Shown one piece after another: positions 7,960 to 42,863 of a stretch of DNA of 64,000 nucleotides. Source of the stretch: Piscinibacter sp. (GTDB lineage Bacteria; Pseudomonadota; Gammaproteobacteria; Burkholderiales; Burkholderiaceae_C). The stretch lies in NCBI RefSeq assembly GCF_035513255.1, contig NZ_DATKCI010000015.1. The stretch is one strand, 5' to 3'. Position numbers and translations under genes: made by a program. The notes beneath the pieces were generated by a model. That model was not told the origin of the DNA, did not search any database, and saw only the letters and a list, made by a program, of their open reading frames with translations. The first letter of the stretch is position 1. Each line of letters opens with the position of its first letter.

Positions 7960-8478
7960 ATGAAGCTGACCAGCGACGACTTCGAACTGTTCGGCGTGCC
8001 GCGGCGCTTCGAGCAAGACCGCGCCGCGCTCGATGCGCGCTGGCGCTCGCTGCAGGCCGAGGTGCACCCCGACCGCTTCGCGGCCGACGGTGCCGCGTCG
8101 CAGCGTGTGGCGATGCAGTGGGCCGTGCGTGTCAACGAGGCCTATGAGCGGCTGAAGGATCCTGTCCAGCGAGCGGCCTATTTGTGCGAGCTGAATGGCC
8201 GTCCGGTGGAGATTCAGAACAACACCGCAATGCCGGCTGCTTTCCTGGTGCAGCAGATGGAATGGCGCGAAGCTCTCGACGACGCGGAGTCGGAGGACGA
8301 AGTCGATGCGCTGGCCGCCCAGGTCGCGGCGCGCCGAAACAGCGCGCTGGCCGAACTGCGTGACACGCTGGATGGGCGCCGCGACTTCGAAACGGCGGCG
8401 CAGCAGGTCAGAGCCCTCATGTTCATCGAGCGCTTTGCGCAGGACATCGATCAGCGGCTGGAAGCGTTGGGACAATAA
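7960..8478 (+). CDS. hscB: Fe-S co-chaperone HscB
   Basis: J-domain HPD motif (VHPDRF), position in the isc operon. Confidence 0.95.
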
Positions 8479-8482
8479 CGAC

Positions 8483-10339
<1,857 letters not shown>

Positions 10340-10342
10340 GGC

Positions 10343-10681
10343 ATGCCCATCATCAAGATCCTGCCGCACCCCGAGTACTGCCCGAACGGCGCCGAGATCA
10401 AGGCCGATCCCGGCACCTCCGTCTGCGAGGCGCTGCTCGAGCACGACATCGAGATCGAGCACGCCTGCGAGATGAGCTGCGCGTGCACGACCTGTCACGT
10501 CGTCGTGCGCGAGGGCTTCGACTCGCTCGGAGAGATGGACGAAGCCGAAGAAGACCTGCTCGACCGCGCCTGGGGACTCGAAGCCACCTCACGGCTGTCG
10601 TGCCAGGCGATCCTGTCGCAGCAGGACGTGACCGTCGAGATCCCGAAGTACTCGATCAACTACGCCAAAGAGAAGCACTGA
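10343..10681 (+). CDS. fdx: ISC [2Fe-2S] ferredoxin
   Basis: HACEMSCACTTCH...RLSCQ. Confidence 0.96.
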   Translation: MPIIKILPHPEYCPNGAEIKADPGTSVCEALLEHDIEIEHACEMSCACTTCHVVVREGFDSLGEMDEAEEDLLDRAWGLEATSRLSCQAILSQQDVTVEIPKYSINYAKEKH

Positions 10682-12642: not shown

Positions 12643-13833
12643 ATGCCCAGCTTGCTGCCGGTGGCCGCCGACCTGGCGTGGCCGTTTGCCGTGGCCCTCG
12701 CCTGGATCGCCGGCGAACTGGGCCACCGGTGGCTGCGCCTGCCTCGCATCAGCATGTACGGGCTGGTCGGCTTCGGCCTGGCCGCCACGCAGCTCGGGGT
12801 GCTGCCGTCGGCAGCCGACAGCGGCAGCACGATGCTGCTGGCCAACATCGCGTTCGGGCTGATCCTGTTCGAGTTCGGCTACCGCATCAACCTGCGCTGG
12901 CTGCGCACGAACCCGTGGATCGCGGCCACCGGGCTGTTGGAGGCCGCGGCCACGTTCGTGGCGGTCTACGTCGTGGCCGCCGGCTTCGGCATGTCCGCGC
13001 TGACCTCGCTGCTGCTGGCGTCGATTGCGATGTCGACCTCGCCGGCGGCCGTGATGCGCGTCGTCAACGAGCAGCGCAGCTCCGGGCAGGTGACCGAGCG
13101 GGTGCTGCATCTGTCCGCGTTCAATTGCGTGCTCGCCGTGTTCGCGTTCAAGGTCGTCGTCGGCTTCTGGACCTACGAGAGTTCCGGCAGCGTGCTGCAT
13201 GCGGTCTCGAACAGCCTGGTCGTACTCGGCGCCTCCGCGGGGCTGGGGGCCGTCTTCGGCCTCGGCGTGCCGGCGCTGCTCAGGCGGATCGGCCGGCTCA
13301 GCCGCGATGCGACGGTGGCATTTGCGCTCGCCGTGATCCTGCTGGTTGCGATCACACATGCGCTGAAGCTGTCGCCGGTGCTGGCGGCGCTGACTTTCGG
13401 CTTCGCCGCGCGCCACCGGCGCGTGGCGCTGAACCAGGCGCAGCGCAACTTCGGCGCGCTCGGCGACCTGCTCGCGATCGTGCTGTTCGTGTTCGTCGCG
13501 ACCACGCTCGAATGGCATCGCGTGCTGGCCGGCGCCGGGCTGGCGCTCGCGCTGATCGCCGTGCGCTCGGCCGCCAAGGTGCTCGCGGTGGCCTCGCTCG
13601 CGCGCGTGAGCGGCGTGTCGTGGCGCAAGGGCGTGCTGACCGGCTTGGCGCTGACTCCGATCTCGGTATTCGCGATCCTCGTGCTCGAGGAATCGCGCTT
13701 TCTCGGCATCGACTTCATCGACCAGCTCGCGCCACTGGCGGCGGCCACGCTGCTGCTCGACCTGATCGGTCCGGTGGTGACGCAGCGCAGTCTGATGGCC
13801 GCCGGCGAGAGCGCCGAATCCACGGACACATGA
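12643..13833 (+). CDS. Cation:proton antiporter (CPA2-like, no KTN domain)
   Basis: About 12 hydrophobic segments, LILFEFG, STSPAAV, LTPIS motifs; start ATG 12643. Confidence 0.8.
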
Positions 13834-13834
13834 C

Positions 13835-14974
13835 ATGCCGCTAGAACCCTTCAAGACCTCCGAGCCACTGACCTTGGGCGTCGAGCTCGAGCTGCAGCTC
13901 GTCAGCCTGAGCAACCTGGATCTGATCGACGCCAGCCCCGACATGCTGGACCTCTTGAACCGGCGGCATTTTCCGGGCAACGTCGTGCCGGAGATCACCG
14001 AAAGCATGATCGAGGTATCGACCGACATCCATACCGGCCACGCCGGCCTGGTGGAGCAGCTGCGGCTCATCCGAGATTCGCTGGTGGCCGCCGGCGACAT
14101 GCTCAACGTCGGGATGTGCGGCGGCGGCACGCATCCGTTCCAGCAATGGTCCGAGCGCAAGATCTTTTCCAAGCCGCGCTTCAAGGAGGTGTCGCTGCTG
14201 TACGGCTACCTGGCCAAGCAGTTCACGATCTTCGGCCAGCACGTGCACGTCGGCTGCGCGTCAGGCGACGACGCGCTGCTCCTGCTGCATTCGCTGAGCC
14301 GCTACGTGCCGCATTTCATCGCACTGTCGGCGTCGTCGCCGTTCGTGCAGCGCAAGGACACGCTGTTCCAGTCGTCGCGGCTCAATTCGGTGTTCGCGTT
14401 CCCGCTGAGCGGCCGGGCGCCGTTCGCGCTGCAATGGAGCGACTTCGAAGGCGGCTACTTCGCCCGGATGGAGCACACCGGCATCGTCAAGAGCATGAAG
14501 GACTTCTACTGGGACATCCGGCCCAAGCCGGAGTTCGGCACGATCGAGCTGCGCGTGTGCGACACGCCGCTGACGGTGGAGCGCGCCGCGGCGCTCGCTG
14601 CTTACCTGCAGGCCTTGTGCCGCTGGCTGCTCGAACGCAGCGAGCCGGCCCCGACGGAAGACGACTACCTGGTCTACAACTACAACCGCTTCCAGGCCTG
14701 CCGCTTCGGCCTCGACGGTACGGTCGTGCACCCGAAGACCTATGAGACGCTGTCGCTGCGCGAGGACATCCTCGCCACGCTGCGCCGCCTGCAGCCGCAC
14801 GCCGAGGCGCTGGGCGGCGTGCCGGCACTGGAGCACCTGTACGACACCACGCACCAGGGCAGCGATGCGAGCTACCTGCGCCGGCAGTACGAGGAGCGCG
14901 GCAGTTCCGAGGGCATGGTGGATTCGGCGATCCGCTGTTTTCGCGAGAGCGGCGTACAGCAGGGGTCTTCGTAG
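13835..14974 (+). CDS. ybdK: YbdK-family carboxylate-amine ligase (GCS2)
   Basis: [43 protein letters not shown]. Confidence 0.9.
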
Positions 14975-14995
14975 CCCGGATGAAATCCGGGCTAC
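14971..14995. repeat. GTAG-type REP, perfect palindrome
   Basis: GTAGCCCGGAT-GAA-ATCCGGGCTAC; same core at 24311, 50207, 58913. Confidence 0.9.
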
Positions 14996-15025
14996 GGACG
15001 TCAACCGAGTCAATCCAGGTCGACC

Positions 15026-15063
15026 GGCGCCAATACGGTGCCTCACCGCCCTTGCATGGGGCA
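15026..15063 (+). promoter_or_regulatory. Paired NtrC-like enhancer boxes
   Basis: GGCGCCAATACGGTGCC (15026-15042) and CGCCCTTGCATGGGGCA (15047-15063), centres 21 bp apart, resemble TGCACCA-N3-TGGTGCA, upstream of a sigma54 promoter. Confidence 0.6.
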
Positions 15064-15114
15064 TGCTTGAACGCCGGCGGCTCGTGCATCGATGCAATGA
15101 GGCGCCGTGTTCGG

Positions 15115-15130
15115 TGGCACCTGTCTTGCT
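15115..15130 (+). promoter_or_regulatory. sigma54 (-24/-12) promoter of the flavoprotein-cytochrome operon
   Basis: TGGCAC-CTGTC-TTGCT, exact consensus. Confidence 0.9.
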
Positions 15131-15169
15131 AAGACCTGCCCCAAGCGGCGTTCGAGACGCTGCGCGGAA

Positions 15170-15254
15170 GCCAACGGCGGCCTCGGCGCAGCGTGAACGT
15201 TCGGGGACAACGAAGTCCAGCCTGCCATCGCGGCGGGCTGGACTTTTTTCTTTT
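15170..15254 (+). promoter_or_regulatory. ANTAR (NasT) tandem-hairpin leader with overlapping intrinsic terminator
   Basis: P1 GCC-AACGGC-GGC (15170-15181), P2 GGAC-AACGAA-GTCC (15205-15218), both A1/G4 hexaloops; the P2 3' arm overlaps terminator AGTCCAGCCTGCC..GGCGGGCTGGACT-TTTTT. Confidence 0.9.
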
Positions 15255-15267
15255 GAGGAACGCGTCA

Positions 15268-17262
15268 GTGCTTGCAGAAGTGCGCATCGAGATCGCAGCG
15301 GTCGCGGCGCGGCCGGTGGCCGATGCGCCCGTCGTCGTCGTCGGCGCCGGGCCGGTCGGCGTGCGTTTCGCGCAGGAGCTGCGCCGGCGCTGTCCCCAGC
15401 AGCCGCTGGTGGTCTACGGCAGCGAGCCTTGGGCGCCGTACAACCGGGTGCAGCTCTCCGCCTTTCTGGCCGGCAAAACCGATTGGTCATCGCTGACGCA
15501 AGGCCTCGCGCTGCCCGAAGACCCGAACGCGGACGTTCGGCTGCATTGCGCGGTGACCGCCATCGATCGCGCGGGGCGGTGCGTACAGGATGCGAGCGGC
15601 CGCTGGCAGCCGTATGCCAGCCTCGTGCTGGCCATCGGATCGCGCGCTCGCGTGCCCGACATTCCCGGCATCGGTCAGGCCAACGTCTTCGTCTTCCGCG
15701 ACCTCAACGACACGCAGCGGCTTTTCGCGCGGCGCGCGCGCAGCCGACGCACGGTGGTGCTCGGCGGTGGCCTGCTGGGGCTCGAGGCGGCGCGCGCGAT
15801 GCAGCGGCTGAACACCGACGTGTGGGTGATCGAACATGCGCCGCGGCTGATGGCAAGCCAGCTCGACGACGAAGGCTCAGCGCTGCTGCGCGCGCAGGTG
15901 GAGGCGGCGGGCATCCACGTGCTGACCGACACGCGTGTCAAGGCGGTGCACGGGCACGGGCGCGTCGAGGGTGTCGCGCTGCGCGGCGGCGAGCGCGTCG
16001 ATTGCGACACGGTTGTCGTTGCTGCCGGCATCCAGCCGAACGTCGACCTCGCGGTCGCCTGCGGTCTGCCGGTGGGGCGCGGCATCCGCGTGGACGACGC
16101 GATGCGCACCGGCGATCCGCACATCTACGCGATCGGTGAATGCGCGGAACACCGCGGTGCGGTCTACGGCATCGTCGCACCCGGCTTCGAGCAGGCGTCG
16201 GTCGCCGTGCACAGCGTCGCCGGCGGACAGGCGCATTACGAAGGCTCGCTGGTCGCGACACGCCTGAAAGTGCTAGATCTGCCGGTGTTCTCGATGGGCC
16301 AGCTCGGCCTCGCGGGGGACGACGCCGAGCTGCGCAGCGTGTGTCACGACGCCGGCGCCGACGGTACACACCGCCGGATCGCGGTGCGGCGCGGCCGCCT
16401 CGTCGGCGCGCTCGCGGTCGGGGCTTGTCGCGAAATGAGCCGGCTGCAGGAGGCGGTGCTCGCACGCCGCCGCGTGATGCCCTGGCAACTTTGGCGGTTC
16501 CGCCGCAGCGGCTCGCTGTGGCCCGCGGAAGAAGCGACCAGCGTCGTGCATTGGCCCGGTGCCGCGATCGTCTGCAACTGCAACGGCGTCACGCGCGCGC
16601 AGCTGGGCGACGCGATGAAGGCCGGCTGCCGCAGCGTCGGCGAACTGGCGGCGTGCACCCGAGCGTCCACCGTCTGCGGTTCGTGCAAGCCGCTGCTGGC
16701 GGAACTCGCGGGGAGCGGCGCGGCGCCGGAGCCGGTGCGCGGCTGGCGCGGGCTCGCCGCCGTCGCATTGATCGCGTTCGCCTTCGCGCTCGCGATCGCC
16801 GTGCTGCCGGGGCTTCCCTACATGGACTCGGTGCAGGCCGCATGGCAGTGGGATCGCCTGTGGCGCGATAGCTTGTACAAGCAGGTGAGCGGATTCGGCG
16901 TGCTGGGCTTGACGGCGATCGGGCTGTTGCTGACGTTTCGCAAGCGCATCGCCCGCCTGCGCCTCGGGCATTTCGACACCTGGCGCTTCGCCCATGTCGC
17001 GATCGGCCTCGCGGTGCTCGCCGTGTTGTACGTGCACACCGGCGGGCGACTCGGCAGCCAGCTCGACGGCGCGCTGATGGTGGCGTTCACCGGCCTGATC
17101 CTCGTCGGCGGCGCGAGCGCCGCCGTCATCGCGTTCGAACACCGCCTGGCGCCGTCTCTCGTTCGGCGCTGGCGCAGCCGCAGCGTGTGGCTGCACATCC
17201 TTCTGTTCTGGCCCGTACCCGTCCTGCTCGGCTTTCACGTGCTCAAGAGCTACTACTTCTGA
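15268..17262 (+). CDS. NirB-like NAD(P)H:FAD oxidoreductase + BFD [2Fe-2S] domain fused to a ferric-reductase/NOX-like diheme-b membrane domain
   Basis: VGAGPVG, LGGGLLGLEAA, IYAIGEC; CNC...CGSC; five C-terminal TMs with two H-X13-H pairs; no siroheme/[4Fe-4S] domain. GTG start after GAGGA. Confidence 0.85.
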   Translation: MLAEVRIEIAAVAARPVADAPVVVVGAGPVGVRFAQELRRRCPQQPLVVYGSEPWAPYNRVQLSAFLAGKTDWSSLTQGLALPEDPNADVRLHCAVTAIDRAGRCVQDASGRWQPYASLVLAIGSRARVPDIPGIGQANVFVFRDLNDTQRLFARRARSRRTVVLGGGLLGLEAARAMQRLNTDVWVIEHAPRLMASQLDDEGSALLRAQVEAAGIHVLTDTRVKAVHGHGRVEGVALRGGERVDCDTVVVAAGIQPNVDLAVACGLPVGRGIRVDDAMRTGDPHIYAIGECAEHRGAVYGIVAPGFEQASVAVHSVAGGQAHYEGSLVATRLKVLDLPVFSMGQLGLAGDDAELRSVCHDAGADGTHRRIAVRRGRLVGALAVGACREMSRLQEAVLARRRVMPWQLWRFRRSGSLWPAEEATSVVHWPGAAIVCNCNGVTRAQLGDAMKAGCRSVGELAACTRASTVCGSCKPLLAELAGSGAAPEPVRGWRGLAAVALIAFAFALAIAVLPGLPYMDSVQAAWQWDRLWRDSLYKQVSGFGVLGLTAIGLLLTFRKRIARLRLGHFDTWRFAHVAIGLAVLAVLYVHTGGRLGSQLDGALMVAFTGLILVGGASAAVIAFEHRLAPSLVRRWRSRSVWLHILLFWPVPVLLGFHVLKSYYF

Positions 17263-17264
17263 GC

Positions 17265-18707
17265 ATGCGACGAGACCAACGACGACTCTGGATCACCTGG
17301 GGACTGCTGACCGTGATCATCGCCGCCACGTTCGCCACCGCGCTGCTGTGGAAGCGCTCGGCCACGCTGCCGGTGCTCGCGAGCGCACGCGCGGCCTTGG
17401 TGCCCGGCCAGACGACGCACGGCCACCACCAGATCGAACTCGCCTGCGAGAGCTGCCACAGCTCGCCGTTCGGCGGCGGCGCCGTGATGCAGGAGGCCTG
17501 CGTGAATTGCCACGGCGCGGCGCTGAAGGAAGGCGACGACAAGCACCCGGCGTCGAAGTTCGACGACCCGCGCAACGCGTTCCGCCTCGCGAAGATCGAT
17601 GCGCAACAGTGCATCGCCTGTCATGTCGAGCACCGTCCGGCCGCAACGCACGCGATGGGCCTCACGCAGCCGAAGGACTACTGCTTCCACTGCCACAGCG
17701 GCCCGGACGAGATGCCGGCCGACCACAAGGGCCTGCCTTTCGACGGCTGCATGGCGGCCGGCTGCCACAACTACCACGACAACCGGGCGCTGTACGAAGA
17801 CTTCCTGCTGAAGCACGCCGGCGAGCCGCCGTTGCTGGACAAGCGGCAGCTGCCCGAACGCGACCTGCTGACGGCGCTGCAGGAGTCGCTGGCCTACCCG
17901 CAGGCGCGTTATCCGGTCCAGCCGTTGGCGGCCGCGGCGGTCGACGCACCGCGGGGTCACCGTGCCGATCCCAAGATTCACGCCGACTGGCTGGGCACCG
18001 CGCATGCGAAGGCCGGCGTCAACTGCAGCGGCTGCCACGTCGTCGGCGCCACGGTGCCCGAAGGCGAACCGCGTCCGGCGAACGATGGGCAATGGGTCGA
18101 GCGCCCGGCCACGCCGCAGTCCTGCCAAGGGTGCCATGTGGTGGAGACGAAAGGCTTTCTTTCGGGCAAGCACGGCATGCGCTTGGCGCAGGGCCTGTCG
18201 CCGATGGCGCCCGCACAAGCCAGGCTGCCGATGCGCAGCGAGGCGGCGCACGCCGAGCTGAGCTGCACGAGCTGCCACACCGCGCACCGCTTCGACACGA
18301 AGGCGGCGGCGGTCGATTCCTGCCTCTCGTGCCATGACGACACACACTCGCTGGCCTACAAGCAGTCGCCGCACCGCGAGCTGTGGCGGCGTGAACTGCA
18401 GGGCGAGCTGCCGCCGGGCTCCGGTGTCACCTGCGCGAGCTGCCACATGCCGCGGGTCCGCGTGAGCACCGACGAAGGTTCGCGCATGGCCGTGCAGCAC
18501 AACCAGAACGACACGTTGCAGCCCAACGAAAAGATGATCCGGCCCGCCTGCATGAGCTGCCATGGCCTGGGCTTTTCCATCGATGCCTTGGCCGATCGCG
18601 CGCTGATCGATCGCAACTTCGCGGGCCAGCCGTCGCGCCACGTCGAAAGCATTGACATGGCGGTGCGCAAGGACCAGCAGTCATCGCGTGCACGCGAGCG
18701 GCCGTGA
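17265..18707 (+). CDS. Membrane-anchored multiheme cytochrome c (10 CxxCH + 1 CX4CH)
   Basis: N-terminal TM anchor; CESCH, CVNCH, CIACH, CFHCH, CMAAGCH, CSGCH, CQGCH, CTSCH, CLSCH, CASCH, CMSCH; ATG 2 nt after the upstream stop. Confidence 0.92.
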   Translation: MRRDQRRLWITWGLLTVIIAATFATALLWKRSATLPVLASARAALVPGQTTHGHHQIELACESCHSSPFGGGAVMQEACVNCHGAALKEGDDKHPASKFDDPRNAFRLAKIDAQQCIACHVEHRPAATHAMGLTQPKDYCFHCHSGPDEMPADHKGLPFDGCMAAGCHNYHDNRALYEDFLLKHAGEPPLLDKRQLPERDLLTALQESLAYPQARYPVQPLAAAAVDAPRGHRADPKIHADWLGTAHAKAGVNCSGCHVVGATVPEGEPRPANDGQWVERPATPQSCQGCHVVETKGFLSGKHGMRLAQGLSPMAPAQARLPMRSEAAHAELSCTSCHTAHRFDTKAAAVDSCLSCHDDTHSLAYKQSPHRELWRRELQGELPPGSGVTCASCHMPRVRVSTDEGSRMAVQHNQNDTLQPNEKMIRPACMSCHGLGFSIDALADRALIDRNFAGQPSRHVESIDMAVRKDQQSSRARERP

Positions 18708-18759
18708 CCGCCGGCATCGCGGCCGTCGCCATCCCTTTTTCAACCCCGAGGAGAGAACC

Positions 18760-19317
18760 ATGAAACCGAGTCGACATCTTCCGATCCTTCTGGCTGCGCT
18801 GGTTGCCGGCGGCACGGCCGCCGCCGAGGGCATATCGCCGCAGCAGATGACCGACGCGCTGCATGCCGTGATGGCCGCCGACCGCGCCGTCTACACCAAG
18901 CTGATCGTCAACCGGCTGCAGAACGAAGAGAAGCTCATCAAGGCCAGTGAGCACTGGAAGGACGACAAGGCCCTCGTGTTGCCGGCGCAGATGTTCCGCT
19001 ATGGCGCGGAGGAGGTGGCCAAGACCAACAAGAGCTTCAGCTACTCGCTGCTGTCGACCTGGCCGGTGAACAAGCAGAACGCGCCGCGCACACCGGCGGA
19101 GAAGGAGGGCCTCGCGTTCATCGAGAAGAACCCGACGAAGGCCTACTACAAGACGGAGGACCTCGGTGGCAAGAAGTTCTTCACGGCCGTCTACGCGGAC
19201 CGGGCCATCGCGCCGGCCTGCATCACCTGCCACAACCAGCACAAGGACAGCCCGCGCACCGACTTCAAGATCGGCGACACGATGGGCGGCGTGGTCATCC
19301 GCGTGCCGATGAACTGA
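18760..19317 (+). CDS. Secreted mono-heme c protein, Tll0287-like/DUF3365 family
   Basis: Sec signal (..GGTAAA/EG), LPAQM, PVNKQNAP, ACITCH near the C-terminus, GDTMGGVVIRVP; RBS GAGGAG. Confidence 0.8.
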   Translation: MKPSRHLPILLAALVAGGTAAAEGISPQQMTDALHAVMAADRAVYTKLIVNRLQNEEKLIKASEHWKDDKALVLPAQMFRYGAEEVAKTNKSFSYSLLSTWPVNKQNAPRTPAEKEGLAFIEKNPTKAYYKTEDLGGKKFFTAVYADRAIAPACITCHNQHKDSPRTDFKIGDTMGGVVIRVPMN

Positions 19318-19349: not shown

Positions 19350-19763
19350 ATGACACCGCAACAAGTCGCCCTGGTTCAGGCCTCGTGGCAAAAAATCGTG
19401 CCGATCAAGGACAAGGCCGCCGAGCTCTTCTACGGCAAGCTGTTCGAGATGGACCCCTCGCTGAAACCCCTGTTCAAGGGAGACATGGCCGACCAGGGCC
19501 GCAAGCTCACCGCGATGATCAACACCGCGGTCGTCAACCTGCACCAGCTCGACGGCATCGTCGGCGCCGTGCAGGACCTGGGCCGCCGCCACGTCGGCTA
19601 CGGCGTGAAGGACGAGCACTACGACACGGTCGGCGGCGCGCTGCTGTGGACCTTGGGTGCCGGCCTCGGCGACGCGTTCACCGACGACGTGAAGACCGCG
19701 TGGACGCAAACCTACGGCATTCTGGCCAGCGCGATGAAGGGGGCGGCGAAAGCGCCGGCCTGA
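19350..19763 (+). CDS. Single-domain bacterial globin (flavohemoglobin-like globin domain only)
   Basis: B10 Tyr (LFY), CD1 Phe (LFK), E7 Gln (DQGRKL), F8 His (RRHVGYGV); no reductase domain. Confidence 0.92.
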   Translation: MTPQQVALVQASWQKIVPIKDKAAELFYGKLFEMDPSLKPLFKGDMADQGRKLTAMINTAVVNLHQLDGIVGAVQDLGRRHVGYGVKDEHYDTVGGALLWTLGAGLGDAFTDDVKTAWTQTYGILASAMKGAAKAPA

Positions 19764-19859: not shown

Positions 19860-19875
19860 TGGCACGCGACCTGCT
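19860..19875 (+). promoter_or_regulatory. sigma54 promoter of the nitrate-type ABC operon
   Basis: TGGCAC-GCGAC-CTGCT (one mismatch at -12). Confidence 0.75.
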
Positions 19876-19885: not shown

Positions 19886-20000
19886 CGAGACCACAGCATC
19901 GTGGTCTCGACAACTCACGAACATTGGGCAACGGCGTCCGATCGTTCAGTACGCAGCTTTTGCCGGTTGCGTGCTGGCGATCGGCCGCCGTTTGTCTTTT
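19886..20000 (+). promoter_or_regulatory. Second ANTAR-type leader with long terminator hairpin
   Basis: Hairpin CGAGACCAC-AGCATC-GTGGTCTCG, then GGGC-AACGGC-GTCC, whose loop pairs alternatively with CGCCGTTTGTC-TTTT in a ~70-nt stem. Confidence 0.7.
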
Positions 20001-20030
20001 CCCGAATCGATTTGCACCAGGAGATCCTCG

Positions 20031-21404
20031 ATGACGTCCGCCCGCTCCCGACTGAACCGTCGCCGCTTCCTCGCCAACGCGACCGCACTCGCCGGCGCCT
20101 CGACGATCGCCCTGCCGGGATTCGCGCAGAAGAAGGATCGCCCCGAGAAGGAGGTGCTGAAGTTCGGCTTCATCAAGCTGACCGACTGCGTGCCGCTGAT
20201 CATCGCCTACGAGAAGAAGTACTTCGACGACGAGGGGCTGTTCGTCACGCTCGAAGCGCAGGCCAACTGGAAGGTGCTGCTCGACCGCGTGATCGACGGC
20301 CAGCTCGACGGCGCGCACATGCTCGCCGGCCAGCCGCTGGGCGCGAGCGTGGGCTTCGGCACCAAGGCCGACGTGATCACCGCCTTCAGCATGGACCTGA
20401 ACGGCAACGCGATCACCGTCTCGAACGCGGTGTGGAAGGAGATGAAGCCGCTGCTCCCGATGGAAGACGGCCGCGTGAAGCACCCGATCAAGGCCGACGT
20501 GCTGAAGAAGGTCGTCGACAAGTACAAGCAGCAGGGCAAGCCGTTCAAGATGGGCATGGTGTTCCCGGTCTCCACGCACAACTACGAGCTGCGCTACTGG
20601 CTAGCCGCCGGCGGACTGAAGCCCGGCTACTACACGGCCGGCGACATCACCGGCACGTCGGATGCCGACGTGCTGCTGTCGGTCACGCCGCCGCCGCAGA
20701 TGCCCGCCACGCTGGAGGCCGGCACGATCAACGGCTACTGCGTCGGCGAGCCGTGGAACCAGCAGGCGGTGTTCAAGGGCATCGGCGTGCCCGTGATCAC
20801 CGACTACGAGATCTGGAAGAACAACCCCGAGAAGGTCTTCGGCGTCACGCGCGGCTGGGCCGAACAGAACCCGAAGACGCACATCGCCGTCGTCAAGGCG
20901 CTGATCCGCGCCTGCATGTGGCTCGATGCCAGCATGGCCAACCGCGTCGAGGCGGTGAAGCTGCTGTCCAAGTCGAACTACGTCGGCGCCGACGAAGAGG
21001 TTATCGGCAACAGCATGACCGGCACCTTCGAATACGAGAAGGGCGACAAGCGGCCGCTGCCGGACTTCAACGTCTTCTTCCGCTACCACGCGACCTATCC
21101 GTTCTACAGCGATGCGATCTGGTACCTGACGCAGATGCGTCGCTGGGGGCAGATCACCGAGAACAAGCCCGACAGCTGGTACTTCGAGACCGCGAAGAAG
21201 GTCTACCGGCCGGAGATCTACATGCAGGCGGCCAAGGCGCTCGTGGCCGAAGGCAAGGCGAAGGAGAGCGACTTCCCGATGAAGAGCGACGGCTACCGCG
21301 GCCCGCAGGAAGGATTCATCGACGGCATCGTCTACGACGCGAAGAAGCCCAACGACTACCTGCGCAAATTCAAGATCGGCCTGAAGGCGGACAAGAGCGT
21401 CTGA
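20031..21404 (+). CDS. nrtA: Nitrate/nitrite-type ABC transporter substrate-binding protein (NrtA/CmpA family)
   Basis: Tat signal RRRFL; [37 protein letters not shown]. Confidence 0.88.
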
Positions 21405-21438
21405 CGTGCCTGCGGCACATGCGGCAAAGGAGCCTGCA

Positions 21439-22407
21439 ATGGAACAAGTGATGAAGCTGTTTGGCGGCCTCGCGGCCAGCGACCCTCGCGAGCTCGCACG
21501 TTCGCTGATGTTGAACCTCGGCGTGCCGGTGATCGCGTTCGCGCTGTTCCTCTCGCTGTGGGCATTCGGTGCGTCGCGCGTGCAGACCAGCCTCGGCGCC
21601 GTGCCCGGGCCGGCGCAGGTGCTGGCCCAGGCGAAGGCGCTGTTCGACGATCACGTCGAGGAGCGTGCCAAGCGCGCCGAGTTCTACGAGCGGCAGGCGC
21701 AGCGCAACCGCGAGCGGCTGGCGGAAGATCCGAACGCCGAAGTGCGCGTGTTCAACTGGACCGGCAAGCCGACTTACCTGGACCAGATCGTCACGAGCCT
21801 GATCACGGTGTTCACCGGCTTCCTGATCGCCACCGCCGTCGCCGTGCCGGTGGGCATTCTCTGCGGCTCGTCGCGCATCGTGCAGGCCGCGCTGAACCCG
21901 ATGGTGCAGGTGTTCCGGCCGGTGTCGCCGCTGGCCTGGCTGCCGATCGTGACGCTGATCGTCAGCGCGGTCTACGTGACCGCCGGCGAGCCGATGTTCC
22001 AGAAGTCGTTCCTGATCTCGGCCATCACCGTGACGCTGTGTTCGCTGTGGACCACGCTGCTGAACACCGCAATCGGCGTCACGTCGGTCGACAAGGACCT
22101 GGTCAACGTCGGCCGCGTGCTGCAACTGCCGTGGACGACCCGCGTGCGCAAGATCGTGCTGCCGTCGGCACTGCCCTACATCTTCACCGGCATGCGGCTG
22201 TCGCTCGGCGTCGGCTGGATGGTGCTGATCGCCGCGGAGATGCTCGCGCAGAACCCGGGGCTCGGCAAGTTCGTCTGGGACGAATTCCAGAACGGCAGCT
22301 CCGACTCGCTGAGCCGCATCATGGTCGCGGTGTTCACGATCGGCATCATCGGCTTTCTGCTCGACCGGCTGATGCTCGGCTTGCAGCACCTGGCGTCGCG
22401 CGCATGA
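21439..22407 (+). CDS. nrtB: Nitrate-type ABC transporter permease
   Basis: [33 protein letters not shown]; long periplasmic insertion after TM1. Confidence 0.88.
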
Positions 22408-24236
22408 ACGGGCTGTTGAAAAGCATGAACAACGCAGCCACCGTGCCCCTGGTCGATGCGAGCGCCGCTGCCGCAGCGCCGCGGATCGCGGCCGTTCCCG
22501 ATGCGGCGGCGCTCGAGTTGCGCGGCGTCGCCAAACGCTACGGCAGCGGCCGTGCTGCCACCGAGGTGCTGCACGACATCAACCTGCGCATCGCGCCGGG
22601 TGAGTTTGTTGCGATCGTCGGCTTTTCCGGCAGCGGCAAGACGACGCTCGTGAACCTGCTCGCGGGTCTCGCGACGGCCGACGACGGCGAGGTGCTCAAG
22701 CAAGGTCAACCGATCCGCGGACCGGGGCCGGACCGCGGCATCGTCTTTCAGAGCTATTCGCTGATGCCGTGGCTCACCGTGCGCCAGAACGTCGCGCTGG
22801 CGGTGGACTGCGTGTACGCCGGCGAGTCGGCCCGGGCGCGCGCCGAGCGGGTCAAGCATTACGTGGCGATGGTCGGCCTGAGCGCCGCCATCGACAAGAA
22901 GCCGGCGCAGCTGTCCGGCGGCATGCGCCAGCGCGTGTCGGTGGCGCGTGCGCTTGCGACCAACCCCGACGTGCTGCTGCTCGACGAGCCGCTGTCGGCG
23001 CTCGATGCGCTCACGCGCGCGAACCTGCAGGACGAGATCACCCGCATCTGGAGCGAGGAGAAGAAGACCGTTCTGCTGATCACCAACGACGTCGACGAGG
23101 CGCTGATCCTCGCGGACCGCATCATCCCGCTGAACCCGGGGCCGAAGGCGACCTTGGGACCCGCGTTCGAGGTCGACATCGCCAGGCCGCGCGACCGGCG
23201 CGAAATGAACCACGATGCCCGCTTCAAGGCGCTGCGCGGCGAGATCACGCAGTACCTGATCGACGTGGCGCACCGGCGCGAGGCGGGAACCAGCGCCAAG
23301 GTGATCCAGCTGCCGGTGCTCGTGCCGCGCGTGGAGGGCCGCAAGCTGCCGTCCCTCGCGTCGCTGGCGGGCATGCGGCATGCGGCGCAGCTCGAGGCGA
23401 TGGCGCAACGGGAGTCGGGCGCCGCGAAGACGGCCGAGCATGCGAAGTTGTCCGACGCGCGCTTTGTCGAGTTCTCGCAGGTCGTCAAGGTCTACCCGAC
23501 GCCGCGCGGCCCGCAGACCGTCGTCGACGGCTTCGACCTGAAGATGCGCAAAGGCGAGTTCGTCTCGGTGATCGGCCCTTCGGGCTGCGGCAAGTCGACG
23601 GTTCTGTCGATGGTCGCGGGGTTGACCGACATCACCGAGGGCGGCGTCATCCTCGACGGCCGCGAGATCGCCGGCGCCGCGCCGGACCGCGGCCTCGTGT
23701 TCCAGTCGCCGAGCCTCGTCCCCTGGCTCAGCGCGTACGAGAACGTGATGCTCGGCGTGCAACGTGTGTTCGCCGACGCGTCAGCGGCGCAGCGCCGCAG
23801 CACCGTCGAGTACTACCTGTCGCGGGTCGGCCTGGCCGATGCGATGCACAAGCGCGCCGGCGAGCTGTCCAACGGCATGAAGCAGCGCGTGGGCATCGCG
23901 CGCGCATTCGCGCTGAACCCCAAGTTGCTGCTGCTCGACGAGCCGTTCGGCATGCTGGACTCGCTGACGCGCTGGGACCTGCAGGAAGTGCTGATGGAGG
24001 TGTGGGCGCGCAACCAGGTCACGGCGATCATGGTCACGCACGACGTCGACGAAGCGATCCTGCTGGCCGATCGTGTGGTGATGATGACCAACGGCCCGAA
24101 CGCGAAGATCGGCAAGGTGATGGACGTGACGCTGCCGCGCCCGCGTTCGCGCGCCGCGCTGCTGGCGCATCCGCGCTACTACGAGTTGCGCGAGGAGCTG
24201 ATCACGTTCCTGGAAGACTGCGGCCGCCAGCATTGA
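22404..24236 (+). CDS. Fused tandem ABC ATPase (NrtC/NrtD-like double NBD)
   Basis: Two full NBDs in one frame: [24 protein letters not shown] and [24 protein letters not shown]. Confidence 0.9.
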
Positions 24237-24364: not shown

Positions 24365-25567
24365 TCACTCGCGCCGGCGGATCTTGAATGCGTCGGCATA
24401 GACCGCCGGCTCGGTTCCGTCCCAGACCACGCCGTCCATCAGACGGCTCGAGCGCATCGGGCTGGTCGGCACCGGAATGTTCAGCGCCGACGCCGCCTCG
24501 CGGTACAGCGCGATCTGGTTGATCTGAGACGCGACGCCGAGGTAGTCGGGGTGTTCCTTCAGGAGGCCCCATCGTTTCTGCTGCGTCAGGAACCACATGC
24601 CGTCCGACAGGTACGGGAAGTTCACTTCGCCGTCGCGGAAGAAGCTCATGTGGTGCGGGTCTTCCCAGGTCCGCCCGAGGCCGTTGGTGTAGCAGCCGAC
24701 GATGCGCTCGAGGATCACGTCGACCGAGGTGTCGACGAAAGGCTTGGCGGCGATCGTCTCGGCCATCTTGCGCCGGTTCGCCGCGGTCGCGTCGATCCAG
24801 CGGCTCGCCTCGAGCACCGCCATCACGACCGCGCGACAGGTGTTCGGGTAGCGCCGGACGTAGTCGGCCGTGCTCGCGACGACCTTTTCCGGGTGGTTGC
24901 GCCAGATGTCCTGCGAGCTTGCGGCATGCACCGACACGCCGTCGAGAATGCCGCGGTGGTTCCACGGCTCGCCGACCGAAAAACCGTCCATGTTGCCGGC
25001 GCGTGCGTTGGCGACCATCTGCGGCGGCGGCACGACGATGGTCTTCACGTCGGCGAACGGGTCGATGCCGGCCGAGGCGAGCCAGTAGTACAGCCACATC
25101 GCGTGCGTCCCGGTGGGGAAGGTTTGCGCGAAGGTGTAATCGCGCCGCTCGCTGCGCAGCAACACGGCCAGCGATCCGAGATCGACGGCCCCCTTGTCGG
25201 CGAGGCGCCGCGACAGCGACAGCCCCTGGCCGTTGTTGTTGATCGTCATCAGCACGGCCATGTCCTTCTTCGGGCCGCCGACACCGAGGTGAACGCCGTA
25301 GACGAGGCCGTACAGCACATGCGCCATGTCGATGTCGCCGCGCACCAGTTTGTCGCGCACGCCGGCCCAGGATGCTTCCTTCGTGGGCACGATGCGGATG
25401 CCGTGCTTCCGGTCGAAACCGAGCACCGACGCCATCACCACCGAGGCGCAGTCGGTCAGCGGCATGAAGCCGATGCGAACCTCCTCGCGCTCGGGCTTGT
25501 CGCTGCCGGCGAGCCGCAGGATGGGGCGGGGCGGTCGGCCATGGGGTCCGGGGACGGTGTGGTTCAT
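24365..25567 (-). CDS. nasS: Cytoplasmic nitrate/nitrite sensor NasS
   Basis: NrtA-like fold (IGFMPLTDCAS, FPTGTHAMWLYYWL, VGEPWN) but no signal peptide; directly downstream of an ANTAR regulator. Confidence 0.85.
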   Translation of the reverse strand: MNHTVPGPHGRPPRPILRLAGSDKPEREEVRIGFMPLTDCASVVMASVLGFDRKHGIRIVPTKEASWAGVRDKLVRGDIDMAHVLYGLVYGVHLGVGGPKKDMAVLMTINNNGQGLSLSRRLADKGAVDLGSLAVLLRSERRDYTFAQTFPTGTHAMWLYYWLASAGIDPFADVKTIVVPPPQMVANARAGNMDGFSVGEPWNHRGILDGVSVHAASSQDIWRNHPEKVVASTADYVRRYPNTCRAVVMAVLEASRWIDATAANRRKMAETIAAKPFVDTSVDVILERIVGCYTNGLGRTWEDPHHMSFFRDGEVNFPYLSDGMWFLTQQKRWGLLKEHPDYLGVASQINQIALYREAASALNIPVPTSPMRSSRLMDGVVWDGTEPAVYADAFKIRRRE

Positions 25568-25605
25568 GCGAAATCGAGCCTGACAGGGGAGGTGGAGTGC
25601 ATCGG

Positions 25606-26238
25606 TCAGCCCAGCAACTCGGCCACGTCGACGACGCGCTGCGCGACGTCGGCGATCTTCAGCCCCTTGTCCATCGCGGTCTTGCGCAGCCGCGCGTAGG
25701 CCTCGGGTTCGCCGATGTCGTGGCGCTTCATCAGCAGCCCCTTCGCTCGGTCGATCAGCTTGCGGTCGTTGAGCTGGTTGCGCGCCTCGGCGAGCGCCTG
25801 CAGCAGCGACTCCTGGTGCTGGAAGCGTGCCATCGCGACGTCGAGCACCGGCCGGATTCGCTCGGGTGCCAGGCCGGCGACCACGTAGGCCGTCACGCCG
25901 GCGGCGATTGCGTCACGCACGTGGGACGTGTCGTTGTCCTCGGTGAACAGCACGATCGGCCTGCGGGCGTCGCGCGTGGCCATCACGACGTGCTCCAGCG
26001 TGTCGCGCGCCTGGCTCTCGGCATCGATGATGATCATGTCGGGGCCGATCTGCGCGAGCCGGTCGGGCAGGAAGACGTCGGCCGGCAGCACGGCGACGAT
26101 GTTGTAGCCATGCTCGAGCATGCCGATGCGCAGGCTGCGCGAGCGCTCCGCCGCCACCTGCGCCTCGGGGTCGGCAGGGTCGGGGGCAAGCGTCTCGGGC
26201 GCGACGATGACGATGCGCAGGGCCTGGGCCGAGGTCAT
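25606..26238 (-). CDS. nasT: ANTAR-domain antiterminator NasT
   Basis: Pseudo-receiver (PDMIIIDAES) + ANTAR (DRKLIDRAKGLLM..EPEAYARLRKTAMD); start ATG 26238. Confidence 0.92.
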   Translation of the reverse strand: MTSAQALRIVIVAPETLAPDPADPEAQVAAERSRSLRIGMLEHGYNIVAVLPADVFLPDRLAQIGPDMIIIDAESQARDTLEHVVMATRDARRPIVLFTEDNDTSHVRDAIAAGVTAYVVAGLAPERIRPVLDVAMARFQHQESLLQALAEARNQLNDRKLIDRAKGLLMKRHDIGEPEAYARLRKTAMDKGLKIADVAQRVVDVAELLG

Positions 26239-26250: not shown

Positions 26251-26266
26251 AGCAACATCTGCGCCA
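26251..26266 (-). promoter_or_regulatory. sigma54 promoter of nasTS
   Basis: Minus strand TGGCGC-AGATG-TTGCT. Confidence 0.8.
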
Positions 26267-33593: not shown

Positions 33594-33632
33594 GGCCGGC
33601 GCCATCACCCAGTTTTTTGGAGTTGAGAAGAA

Positions 33633-34016
33633 ATGAGCAGCTGGATGCTGAATTTGGTGGTAATGATGCAGATCCTCACGGCGCTCGCGATGATCGGCTT
33701 GGTGCTCGTGCAGCACGGCAAAGGTGCCGACATGGGCGCGTCGTTCGGCAGCGGGGCGTCGGGCAGCCTGTTCGGGGCCACCGGCAGCGCGAACTTCCTG
33801 TCGCGCTCGACGGCAGTGCTCGCGGCCGTGTTCTTCGCCTGCACGCTGGCGCTGGCTTACATCTCGAATGACCGCACCCGTCCCGAAAGCGGCAGCGTGC
33901 TCGACCGTCCGAGCACATCGATCCCGGCGGAGAACGGCGCGACTTCGGTTCCGGCCGATGCGGCCCCGACCCCTGCGGCCCCGGCGTCCGGCGCCGCGGC
34001 GATTCCTTCGAATTGA
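33633..34016 (+). CDS. secG: Preprotein translocase subunit SecG
   Basis: LVQHGKGADMGASFGSG..SLFG. Confidence 0.96.
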   Translation: MSSWMLNLVVMMQILTALAMIGLVLVQHGKGADMGASFGSGASGSLFGATGSANFLSRSTAVLAAVFFACTLALAYISNDRTRPESGSVLDRPSTSIPAENGATSVPADAAPTPAAPASGAAAIPSN

Positions 34017-34157
34017 TGCAGATCGAGAAGGGCTCGAAAGGGGCGGCAATGCGCCGCTCGCATTGAGGAAGGCCCTTCTTTGAGGTTAGAATCAGCGGCT
34101 GTTCGGAGAGCCATTCCTCATGCAATCCGACGCCCGCTTGACGAGTAGTTCAGAGTG

Positions 34158-34242
34158 GCCGACGTGGTGAAATTGGTAGACACGCTATCTTGAGGGGGTA
34201 GTGGCGAAAGCTGTGCGAGTTCGAGTCTCGCCGTCGGCACCA
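34158..34242 (+). tRNA. tRNA-Leu (GAG)
   Basis: Acceptor GCCGACG/CGTCGGC + ACCA, D-loop GGTA, anticodon loop TTGAGGG, long variable arm, GTTCGAG T-loop. Confidence 0.97.
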
Positions 34243-34303
34243 GATCTTCTTGCGCGAGATTCGTCCCGGGTCTCGCTCGAGCCCCAAGCCGACCCGAGCC
34301 ACC

Positions 34304-34663
34304 ATGAATCTGGAACCGTACCTGCCCGTCATCCTGTTCATTCTGGTGGGCGTGGCAGTCGGAGTGGTTCCACAGCTCATCGGCTTCGTCTTCGGCCCGC
34401 GCCGCCCCGATGCGGCGAAGAATTCCCCCTACGAATGCGGCTTCGAAGCCTTCGAAGACGCGCGCATGAAGTTCGACGTGCGCTACTACCTCGTGGCCAT
34501 TCTGTTCATTCTGTTCGACCTCGAAATCGCCTTTCTCTTCCCGTGGGCGGTCGCGCTGCGCGAAATCGGTCCCGTGGGCTTCTGGGCCATGATGGTCTTC
34601 CTGGGCATCCTCGTCGTCGGCTTCGCCTACGAGTGGAAAAAGGGTGCCCTGGACTGGGAATGA
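34304..34663 (+). CDS. nuoA: NADH-quinone oxidoreductase subunit A
   Basis: PYECGF, FILFDLE, KGALDWE. Confidence 0.97.
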
Positions 34664-34676
34664 TGGAGTAACCACG

Positions 34677-35153
34677 ATGGGCATCGAAGGCGTTCTCAAA
34701 GAAGGTTTCGTCACCACCAGTCTCGACACGGTGATCAACTGGTCGAAGACCGGGTCGCTGTGGCCGATGACGTTCGGCCTCGCCTGCTGCGCGGTCGAGA
34801 TGATGCACGTCGGCGCGGCGCGCTACGACATCGACCGCTTCGGCATGCTGTTTCGTCCGAGTCCGCGCCAGTCCGACCTGATGATCGTCGCCGGCACCTT
34901 GTGCAACAAGATGGCACCGGCGCTGCGCAAGGTTTACGACCAGATGGCCGAACCGCGCTGGGTGCTGTCGATGGGCTCGTGCGCGAACGGCGGCGGCTAC
35001 TACCACTACAGCTACTCGGTCGTGCGCGGCTGCGACCGCATCGTGCCGGTGGACGTCTACGTGCCCGGCTGCCCGCCGACGGCCGAGGCGCTGCTGTACG
35101 GGATCATCCAGCTGCAGGCGAAGATTCGCCGCGAAAACACGATCGCGCGGTAA
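34677..35153 (+). CDS. nuoB: NADH-quinone oxidoreductase subunit B
   Basis: [22 protein letters not shown]. Confidence 0.97.
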
Positions 35154-35157
35154 CGGC

Positions 35158-35754
35158 ATGACGAGAATCGAAACCCTTCAAGCCGCACTGGAGTCCGTGC
35201 TCGGCAGCAAGCTTCGCAAGCTCGTGCGCGATCGCGGCGAGATCACCATCACAGTGTCGCCTGCCGACTACGTCGAAGCGTCGCTGGCATTGCGCGACGA
35301 CCCGTCGCTGAAATTCGAGCAACTGATCGACCTGTGCGGCCTGGACTACTCGGGCTACAAGGACCAGCCGTGGGACGGGCCGCGCTTTTGCGTCGTCTCG
35401 CACTTGCTGTCGATCAGCCACAACTGGCGTGTGCGCCTCAAGGTCTTCGCCGACGACGACGACGTGCCGACCGTCGCCTCGCTCACCGACGTGTGGAGTG
35501 CTGCCAACTGGTTCGAGCGCGAGGCCTTCGACCTCTTCGGCATCATCTTCGACGGCCACATCGACCTGCGCCGCATCCTCACCGACTACGGTTTCATCGG
35601 ACATCCGTTCCGCAAGGACTTCCCGGTCTCCGGCCATGTCGAGATGCGCTACGACCTCGATCAGAAGCGCGTCATCTACCAACCGGTGACGATCGAGCCG
35701 CGCGAGATCACGCCGCGCATCGTCCGCGAAGACAACTACGGCGGGTTGCAGTGA
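35158..35754 (+). CDS. nuoC: NADH-quinone oxidoreductase subunit C
   Basis: [20 protein letters not shown]. Confidence 0.97.
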
Positions 35755-35775
35755 CGGGCGCCGGCGCGAAGCATC

Positions 35776-37029: not shown

Positions 37030-37514
37030 TGTCCGACGCGATGGAAAAACGCTTCGCCCGGGAAGTGGCCAAGTACCCGCCGGAGCAGAAGCAGTCCGCG
37101 GTGATGGCCTGCCTGGCCATCGTCCAGCAGGAGCGGGGCTTCGTCTCGGCCGACAGTGAAAAGATGGTGGCCGATTACCTCGGCATGCCGGTCATCGCGG
37201 TGCACGAGGTCACCACGTTCTACAACATGTACAACCAGCAGCCGCTGGGCCGCTTCAAGTTCAACGTCTGCACCAACCTCCCTTGCCAGCTGCGCGACGG
37301 CCAGCAGGCGCTCGAGCACCTGTGCAGCCGGCTCAGCGTGGAAGAGGGCGGCACGACGGCCGACGGCCTGTTCACCGTGCAGAAGAGCGAATGCCTGGGC
37401 GCCTGCGCCGATGCGCCGGTGATGCTGGTCAACGACCGCGAGATGTGCAGCTTCATGAGCAACCAGCGGCTCGACGAGCTGCTGGACGTGCTCGCGTCGC
37501 AGGCGAAGGAATGA
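37026..37514 (+). CDS. nuoE: NADH-quinone oxidoreductase subunit E
   Basis: VCTNLPC..ECLGAC [2Fe-2S] motif; ATGA overlap with nuoD. Confidence 0.96.
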
Positions 37515-38869: not shown

Positions 38870-38882
38870 CGGTCCACGCAAC

Positions 38883-41213: not shown

Positions 41214-41221
41214 GAACCGCG

Positions 41222-42286: not shown

Positions 42287-42301
42287 AGCGTAGGTCCCAC
42301 C

Positions 42302-42799: not shown

Positions 42800-42863
42800 G
42801 CCTCGCGCTCATCGACGCGGCCGGCGCCTGCGAGGGCGGCCCGGCCCGGTGCTCGACAACAAC

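Follow-up and report, generated by a model that had tools for sequence, protein, structure and literature searches.

A NirB-type diaphorase fused to a putative dihaem cytochrome b domain, in a gene module with multihaem cytochromes c and nitrate-assimilation genes

To our knowledge, the export of electrons from NAD(P)H across a membrane via two haems b is known mainly from the NOX and ferric-reductase (FRD) proteins, and the Fre-MsrQ system works on a similar principle; as far as we know, bacterial reductions in the periplasm are otherwise thought to be routed via the quinone pool. The NOX/FRD proteins (NOX5, SpNOX/CsNOX5, FRE, and STEAP) and the Fre-MsrQ-MsrP system share a common logic, in which electrons pass from NAD(P)H to flavin, then to two stacked bis-His haems b, and finally to an acceptor that is not cytoplasmic. 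Here, we describe a gene from Piscinibacter sp. that appears to follow this logic with different parts. The gene is located at positions 15268 to 17262 on the plus strand of a 64,000-nucleotide stretch of DNA (the window; NCBI RefSeq assembly GCF_035513255.1, contig NZ_DATKCI010000015.1). The open reading frame, a domain scan, the homologues, and a structure model indicated that its product was a 664-amino-acid flavo-iron-sulfur-cytochrome-b-like membrane protein, which we refer to as the fusion. We consider it likely that the fusion is part of a quinone-independent inner-membrane chain in which electrons pass from NADH to FAD, a [2Fe-2S] cluster, two haems b, and periplasmic haems c.

The fusion is also related to the NirB, NasB/NasC, NorW, and Flp diaphorases. 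Its first 480 residues corresponded to the FAD, NADH, and BFD domains of NirB, and it was linked to nitrate-assimilation genes. In contrast to NirB, it had no 4Fe-4S/sirohaem catalytic half, and a true NirB coexisted with it. Another system that has been characterized is the NasT-controlled narK-bjgb-flp-nasC operon of Bradyrhizobium japonicum, which combines a 418-amino-acid FAD/NAD(P)H flavoprotein (Flp) with a single-domain haemoglobin and functions in nitric oxide (NO) detoxification and nitrate reduction (PMC4724949). The two systems are alike in that both pair an FAD/NAD(P)H flavoprotein with a single-domain globin, alongside nitrate-assimilation genes under NasS-NasT; in B. japonicum, the pair removes NO that is produced as a by-product. 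Unlike the fusion, Flp is a soluble protein that lacks a membrane domain, and its operon contains neither periplasmic cytochromes nor a Cache-haem protein.

The fusion gene started with a GTG codon at 15268, with a GAGGA ribosome-binding site 8 nucleotides upstream, and ended with a TGA codon at 17260 to 17262. Based on Pfam and Foldseek, residues 22 to 397 (15331 to 16458, plus strand) formed a cytoplasmic FAD/NADH dehydrogenase module of the NirB or ferredoxin-reductase type. Specifically, Pyr_redox_2 covered residues 22 to 314 (2e-57, 195 bits), Pyr_redox matched as well, and a Rubredoxin_C-like domain covered residues 330 to 397. The module had the pyridine-nucleotide-disulfide oxidoreductase fold with two Rossmann GxGxxG motifs, and the best structural matches of the N-terminal part were the NADH-ferredoxin reductase BphA4, putidaredoxin reductase, and rubredoxin reductases (E ~1e-32, target template modeling score [TM-score] of 0.85). 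Residue E189, which closed the second Rossmann β-strand, was nearly invariant in 58 full-length homologues; by analogy with the enzyme class, this residue suggests that NADH is the donor.

A BFD-type [2Fe-2S] domain followed at residues 434 to 480 (16567 to 16707, plus strand). Fer2_BFD (PF04324) matched with an E value of 5.6e-10 and a score of 39.8 bits against a cut-off of 26, and the cysteines of the CNC...CGSC motif (pattern C-x-C ... C-x2-C) were C436, C438, C470, and C473. The NCBIfam NirB model (TIGR02374) aligned with the fusion over model positions 1 to 464 of 794 only (E = 1e-115), and the whole-protein score of 388 bits was below the curated cut-off of 578.35. Pfam and NCBIfam detected no NIR_SIR sirohaem/[4Fe-4S] domains in the fusion and no alignment past NirB position 464, and no Pfam family covered residues 485 to 664. 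These NirB and Pfam matches bore out a sequence-only reading of the window, which had assigned the first ~480 residues to the FAD, NAD(P)H, and BFD modules of NirB. The labels that databases gave to the fusion were "FAD-dependent oxidoreductase" or, wrongly, "nitrite reductase (NADH) large subunit."

The profile, AlphaFold2 models, conservation, and a charge count indicated that residues 493 to 664 (16744 to 17259, plus strand) formed a domain with five transmembrane helices (TMs). The full-length AlphaFold2 model had a predicted local distance difference test score (pLDDT) of 88.1 and a predicted TM-score (pTM) of 0.69. In the case of the isolated membrane domain, the pLDDT was 91.1 and the pTM was 0.85. 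The models contained five long helices at residues 493 to 512, 535 to 559, 569 to 591, 598 to 622, and 629 to 663. TM3 carried the His pair H576-x13-H590 and TM5 carried the pair H643-x13-H657, and the protein terminated 7 residues beyond the last His. The corresponding plus-strand codons were located at 16993 to 16995 (H576), 17035 to 17037 (H590), 17194 to 17196 (H643), and 17236 to 17238 (H657). The positive-inside count placed the basic TM2-3 and TM4-5 loops in the cytoplasm and the N terminus inside. Because these loops would be cytoplasmic, both of the His-bearing helices are predicted to run from inside to outside, with each pair arranged across the bilayer.

The sequence-only reading had likewise proposed five TMs with two His pairs in the place of the sirohaem domain, and the AlphaFold2 helices and the sequence agreed with it. 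The four His that it had singled out, as well as C436, C438, C470, and C473, were invariant in the 58 full-length homologues, down to 32% identity. Further invariant residues in these proteins were W532, G542, R560, G592, G596, and G614. We infer that the membrane domain binds two bis-His haems b.

NOX His pairs sit on TM3 and TM5, and the fusion shared with the NOX/FRD proteins a cytoplasmic N terminus and a spacing of about 13 residues within each His pair, with the pairs on the third and fifth helices and both of these helices running from inside to outside. The differences were substantial. The fusion had five helices, whereas NOX/FRD proteins have six; its flavodomain was N-terminal and had the Pyr_redox_2 fold, whereas that of NOX/FRD is C-terminal and of the FNR-type FAD/NADPH kind; it interposed a [2Fe-2S] cluster; and its acceptor would be a multihaem cytochrome c instead of O2, Fe(III), or MsrP. 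In addition, Pfam Ferric_reduct (PF01794) gave no match to the window protein at E ≤ 1, and the sole match of this model in a six-frame translation of the whole genome was an MsrQ-like gene on another contig. When the domain alignment was compared with 27 MsrQ-like sequences via hhalign, the probability was 2.8%.

We also scanned 32 aligned family members against Pfam with a lax threshold, and no member reached any gathering score. The sub-threshold matches included DUF4405 in nine members (best 0.0028), DUF4079 in seven, Ferric_reduct in four (best 0.0022), and Ni_hydr_CYTB and PepSY_TM in three each. Almost all of these recurrent weak matches were to dihaem-b membrane families, and we take the five families to belong to one Pfam clan. 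Among more distant relatives, there were sub-threshold matches to DUF4405 (4.5e-5) in the stand-alone protein P0320 and to Ferric_reduct (5.7e-4) in one protein, and P0328 had a precomputed PF14358 match. In DUF4405 (PF14358), Ni_hydr_CYTB (PF01292), and bc1/b6f cytochrome b, as in the fusion, two helices within a bundle carry two H-x13-H-type pairs, but the His-bearing helices of the fusion had the opposite polarity to bc1 helices B and D. Thus, the likeness to NOX/ferric reductases that the sequence-only reading had claimed held for the layout and topology (His pairs on TM3 and TM5, N terminus inside) but not for family membership, which the Pfam model (PF01794), hhalign, and Foldseek all left unsupported. 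As judged from these comparisons, the membrane domain appears to be an unclassified family, a twilight-zone relative of the dihaem cytochrome b group and not a demonstrable FRD member.

The fusion belonged to a large family. Residues 485 to 664 used as a query yielded 98 clusters of 630- to 700-amino-acid proteins with the same architecture, including proteins from Cupriavidus necator H16, Noviherbaspirillum sedimenti, and Piscinibacter, and the membrane-domain profile matched 1002 representative proteins at E ≤ 1e-3, of which 383 also passed E ≤ 1e-30, many more than chance would produce. The window came from a soil-metagenome assembly, and the gene could have been a frameshifted or misassembled nirB that had lost its sirohaem domain, a concern that the sequence-only reading had itself raised. 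However, the 98 clusters included complete genomes (such as C. necator H16 chromosome 2), the C-terminal motifs were conserved, and the Piscinibacter genome had a complete NirB of its own (934 bits) on a different contig. Since the architecture was repeated in hundreds of independent assemblies and a full NirB was present elsewhere, an artefact was excluded and we give it practically no weight. The membrane domain was missing from all 60 of the relatives that were searched, 15 of which were from the same genus; therefore, the fusion module is accessory and was probably acquired by transfer.

Three genes followed the fusion gene on the plus strand. The first (17265 to 18707) encoded a membrane-anchored 11-haem cytochrome c with 10 CxxCH motifs and one CxxxxCH motif, and the second (18757 to 19317) encoded a secreted haem-c Cache protein of the Tll0287/DUF3365 type (Pfam Tll0287-like, 4e-19). 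The third (19350 to 19763) encoded a 137-amino-acid single-domain globin with no signal peptide (Pfam Globin, 9e-17). The gaps between the fusion, cytochrome, Cache, and globin genes were 2, 49, and 32 nucleotides, and a terminator scan detected no terminators between them. The synteny of the module, which supported the identities of the cytochrome and Cache genes, was analyzed in 80 loci, which came from three phyla: Proteobacteria (alpha, beta, and gamma classes), Planctomycetota, and Verrucomicrobiota. The same-strand genes located 3' of the fusion encoded a multihaem cytochrome c in 74 loci, a DUF3365/Tll0287 protein in 69, a globin in 59, and a class I monohaem cytochrome c in 39; a few loci had a truncated haemoglobin instead of the globin. 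Hence, the partner cytochrome that the sequence-only reading had anticipated was conserved beside the gene in 74 of the 80 loci. The complete bacterial-type module, with NasT and NrtAB, was also found in L073, a metagenome bin labelled "uncultured Halobacteria archaeon"; its contig was probably mis-binned.

The proposed mechanism drew its strongest support from variants with a swapped donor. Three proteins of 863 to 1013 amino acids (P0128, P0175, and P0251; loci L120 to L123) had no Pyr_redox_2 domain and retained the linker, BFD, and membrane domain. In these proteins, an FNR-type FAD_binding_6/NAD_binding_1 module was located between the BFD and membrane domains, and the front ends consisted of EF-hand domains or of three to four cyclic nucleoside monophosphate (cNMP)-binding domains. 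The gene 3' of these variants encoded the orthologous cytochrome (45 to 50% identity over 460 amino acids), and in one locus the Cache-haem protein followed as well (62% identity). Because this membrane domain was joined to two unrelated flavodomains, each time next to the same cytochromes, the variants argue that it receives NAD(P)H-derived electrons via the [2Fe-2S] cluster. The sequence-only reading had described a transmembrane NAD(P)H oxidase wire; the independent FNR-flavodomain fusions support the wire but not the term oxidase, the predicted acceptor being a periplasmic cytochrome chain. The EF-hand and cNMP variants parallel the Ca2+-regulated NOX5 and DUOX proteins, which hints that second messengers may gate electron export.

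The membrane domain also occurred as a stand-alone protein. Homologues P0319 to P0328 (189 to 287 amino acids) retained the four His and always adjoined a membrane-anchored multihaem cytochrome. Those of 189 to 242 amino acids had 28 to 38% identity, kept all four His, and were found in the gene order cytochrome, Cache-haem protein, membrane protein. Even more distant relatives of 271 to 287 amino acids, from the same taxonomic order as the source organism, likewise preceded a membrane-anchored multihaem cytochrome, and they adjoined a gene whose translated sequence resembled the cytochrome c maturation factor CcmI. Genes for stand-alone homologues were located at positions 6001 to 6570 of L124, 544 to 1404 of L126 (minus strand), and 473 to 1285 of L127 (minus strand). 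One stand-alone locus adjoined an H-NOX gene. Another was embedded in a nitrate-assimilation cluster, which ran from NasT to genes for an ODP di-iron protein, a globin, the cytochrome, the Cache-haem protein, the membrane protein, a cytochrome c, a ferredoxin, a NirA-like protein, NasA, and CysG.

The occurrence of these donor-less homologues beside multihaem cytochromes could mean that the membrane domain reacts with quinones, in the manner of dihaem cytochromes b such as NarI, the Geobacter Cbc-type quinol oxidoreductases, and CybB. In that case, the complex would be an NADH:quinone reductase or a quinol:cytochrome-c dehydrogenase, and the flavoprotein would feed or regulate it without forming a direct wire. 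Pairs of dihaem b and multihaem c proteins that oxidise quinol are well known, and the weak Ni_hydr_CYTB matches point in the same direction. However, NAD(P)H flavodomains of two unrelated types, both accompanied by a BFD domain, were fused to the membrane domain independently, which is hard to explain unless the cluster is the point of electron entry. In addition, a small ferredoxin gene lay beside one of the stand-alone loci, and no quinone-site motif was identified in the membrane domain. We therefore view quinone chemistry as unlikely and favor a direct route from NADH to the periplasmic cytochromes.

The 11-haem cytochrome had an N-terminal membrane anchor, and all of its haem motifs and 12 additional His were invariant in 71 homologues. 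Its profile matched TvNiR, an octahaem nitrite reductase (4.8e-10), NrfA (3.5e-9), and IhOCC (4e-7), and its CLSCH motif was aligned with the catalytic CxxCK of TvNiR. In contrast to NrfA, TvNiR, ONR, and HAO, the cytochrome had CxxCH and not CxxCK, and it was without the catalytic Tyr/His stretch. Because it was akin to NrfA and TvNiR and did not have this stretch, the cytochrome looks like a wire that was derived from an enzyme and not like an obvious catalyst. A catalytic haem with open coordination was not evident, since 12 extra His were present for 11 haems. In locus L079 (Thiohalomonadales), the cytochrome and Cache-haem genes formed two tandem copies (8421 to 10422 and 13698 to 15754) behind one fusion gene.

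The C-terminal half of the cytochrome falls in the NrfA/ONR/HAO superfamily, and this placement would also accommodate electron flow in the inward direction, with periplasmic haems oxidising hydroxylamine or another reduced nitrogen compound and passing the electrons to NAD+. Yet no P460-type or open catalytic haem was found in the cytochrome, and the operon was induced with assimilation genes and not with energy-metabolism genes. Moreover, with NAD+ at -320 mV, its reduction by donors of this kind is energetically uphill, all the more so as the membrane potential opposes it. Inward flow is thus very improbable in our judgment.

The Cache-haem protein was the best-conserved member of the module, with 47 to 80% identity in syntenic loci. 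Its only conserved Cys were those of the CxxCH motif, and M176, H162, Y46, Y96, and Y131 were invariant. Since there was no conserved Cys beyond CxxCH, the axial ligation of its haem appears to differ from that of Tll0287 and the Pseudomonas putida protein, and the Cys/His ligation seen in those proteins was rejected here; M176 and H66 are candidate axial ligands. A recent study divided Cache-haem domains into those with an axial Cys, which are of the redox type, and those without an axial Cys, which bind NO tightly (bioRxiv 10.64898/2026.02.01.703092). We regard the Cache-haem protein as a candidate for the substrate-binding or catalytic subunit.

Tyr-B10 and His-F8 of the globin were invariant, a combination that we take to be of the NO-dioxygenase type. 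Alternatively, the flavoprotein could act mainly in the cytoplasm, like Flp, and donate electrons to the co-encoded globin (as an NO dioxygenase), to the assimilatory nitrate reductase, or to both, with a membrane domain that is mostly an anchor. The Flp-haemoglobin pairing of B. japonicum (PMC4724949) is a precedent, and the globin was present at 59 of the 80 loci. On the other hand, an anchor needs neither four invariant His, the nearby invariant Arg and Gly residues, nor a strictly conserved periplasmic cytochrome, and about a quarter of the loci were globin-free and kept the cytochromes. A mainly cytoplasmic role seems quite unlikely to us, a little more so than quinone chemistry; that said, a Flp-like role and a role as a membrane wire are not exclusive.

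The results described above can be assembled into the following model for the export of electrons. In the cytoplasmic NirB-type domain, NADH would be oxidised on FAD and single electrons would be passed to the BFD-type [2Fe-2S] cluster. The electrons would then move to an inner haem b at H576/H643 near the cytoplasmic face and an outer haem b at H590/H657 near the periplasmic face. The outer haem b would reduce the co-translated membrane-anchored 11-haem cytochrome c, which would pass electrons on to the secreted Cache protein with its haem c; the monohaem cytochrome c may also be in the path in many genomes. The monohaem cytochrome c, the Cache-haem protein, or both would reduce a periplasmic substrate. 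Outward flow would be aided by the membrane potential and would bypass the quinone pool. In the cytoplasm, the globin would probably clear NO inside the cell, as in the Bjgb-Flp system.

Our best guess for the end reaction is the reduction or detoxification of NO, nitrite, or hydroxylamine that is formed or encountered in the course of nitrate assimilation. This guess is based on the NO-linked neighbours (the globin, H-NOX, the ODP di-iron protein, and the Cache-haem protein without an axial Cys) and on control by nitrate and nitrogen limitation. In its fullest form, the proposal is that the Cache-haem protein, together with the membrane domain and the 11-haem cytochrome, constitutes an NADH-powered, quinone-independent periplasmic nitrogen-oxide reductase of a previously unrecognized kind, with the Cache-haem protein (a sensor fold recruited as an enzyme) as the catalytic subunit and an NrfA/ONR-derived wire, and that this reductase is a new and widespread accessory branch of nitrate assimilation or nitrogen scavenging under NtrC/σ54 and NasT. 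We put this fuller proposal forward tentatively, as a possibility about which we have more doubt than belief.

Several results weighed against our interpretation. No PDB sequence matched the membrane-domain profile at E ≤ 10, and a Foldseek search with the domain model produced no PDB match at E ≤ 0.001. The best match was a talin rod (E = 0.05), and the weak matches included DUOX1 (E = 1.2, TM-score of 0.31) and cytochrome b561 (E = 2.8). In the case of the 11-haem cytochrome, the 12 conserved extra His suffice for bis-His ligation of all of the haems, the region of the NrfA/ONR catalytic pocket was missing, and no catalytic site was evident. The stand-alone relatives had no fused donor, and the domain could in principle be fed by quinol. 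Finally, the substrate was proposed from gene context alone.

As noted above, the module was linked to nitrate-assimilation genes. Pfam (NMT1_2) and the open reading frames indicated that a nitrate-type ATP-binding cassette importer was encoded downstream of the globin gene on the plus strand (19971 to 24236), with nrtA at 19971 to 21404, nrtB at 21406 to 22407, and nrtC/D at 22404 to 24236. On the minus strand (24365 to 26238), there were genes for a nasS-like binding protein (24365 to 25567; Pfam NMT1_2) and the ANTAR response regulator nasT (25606 to 26238; Pfam ANTAR). About a third of the 80 loci had NasT directly upstream of the fusion and NrtA/NrtB no more than 8 kb away.

The intergenic region upstream of the fusion gene contained a σ54-type -24/-12 element, TGGCACctgtcTTGC (15115 to 15129, plus strand), which was the only exact TGGCAC-N5-TTGC sequence in the window. 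A motif scan identified two further σ54-like elements with one mismatch each; one was located ahead of nrtA (19860 to 19874, plus strand) and the other just upstream of nasT (26252 to 26266, minus strand). The exact site at 15115 and these two elements suggest that NtrC/RpoN may control the whole island.

Between the σ54-type element and the fusion gene, RNA folding, a terminator scan, and a reading of the sequence pointed to a 5' leader (15157 to 15253, plus strand) with the layout of ANTAR/NasT-type antitermination. Hairpin 1 (15157 to 15194) had an AACGGC hexaloop, and hairpin 2 (GGAC-AACGAA-GUCC, 15205 to 15218) had a 3' arm that doubled as the 5' arm of a terminator. The terminator scan indicated that this terminator consisted of a 15-bp stem (15212 to 15246) followed by a U-run. 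The fold of the leader had a z-score of -4.97 relative to shuffled sequences. We infer that NasT binds the leader because the nasS and nasT genes adjoin the module. In this arrangement, the operon would be switched on by nitrogen limitation via σ54 and by nitrate or nitrite via NasS-NasT antitermination.

Expression data were available for the orthologous operon in C. necator H16. The fusion orthologue, H16_B0948, follows selB (H16_B0947) on chromosome 2, and the same four-gene module (positions 14551 to 21306 of L089) is followed by a full ccmABCDEFGHI cluster. When C. necator H16 was depleted of nitrogen, the read counts increased from 65 to 1456 for H16_B0948, from 60 to 2180 for B0950, and from 110 to 2447 for B0951 (PMC3734047), which corresponded to a 22- to 37-fold rise. 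Based on gene order, B0950 was the DUF3365 protein; B0951 was the haemoglobin-like protein. In addition, σ54 promoters were reported for the C. necator nitrogen-stress genes, including the orthologue (PMC3734047). A literature search for the fusion or operon, for DUF3365/Tll0287 in connection with multihaem proteins or nitrate, and for the H16_B0948-51 tags yielded no functional description, only the transcriptome listing. For the source organism, a search for transcripts found the sequence in soil-metagenome DNA runs only.

The idea that the module replaces the sirohaem nitrite reductase was rejected as a rule, since 36 of the 50 genomes with the module also had a NirB above the cut-off, often no more than about 10 to 15 kb away on the same contig, as did the genome described here. 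Its role in nitrate assimilation is that of an accessory. Many of the module genomes also had a separate flavoprotein of ~390 to 470 amino acids by nirB, which matched the NirB model over its first ~400 positions only (for example, G060:C1:1986031-1987197 and G090:C56:59207-60394). This flavoprotein resembled a Flp/NasB-type electron donor.

If the proposed chain is correct, it would be a second, independently assembled solution for the export of electrons, with another flavoprotein fold, an added Fe-S cluster, a new membrane domain, and a multihaem acceptor. NOX/FRE and Fre-MsrQ already embody this principle with other parts and another acceptor. The family comprises about a thousand sequence clusters from no fewer than three phyla, with ties to nitrate assimilation and nitrogen limitation, and it would then represent an uncharted piece of the nitrogen cycle and of nitrosative-stress defence. 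It would also provide a physiological setting for the haem-Cache (DUF3365) proteins of the "stand-alone" type, which make up a large half of their family. C. necator H16, which carries the operon H16_B0948-B0951, is a tractable strain for direct testing.

The regions that flank the island in the window were identified by open reading frame sizes and translations only. On one side, there were isc genes from hscA to fdx (8195 to 10681), and on the other side, there was an apparent nuo operon for NADH dehydrogenase I (~33600 to 50200).

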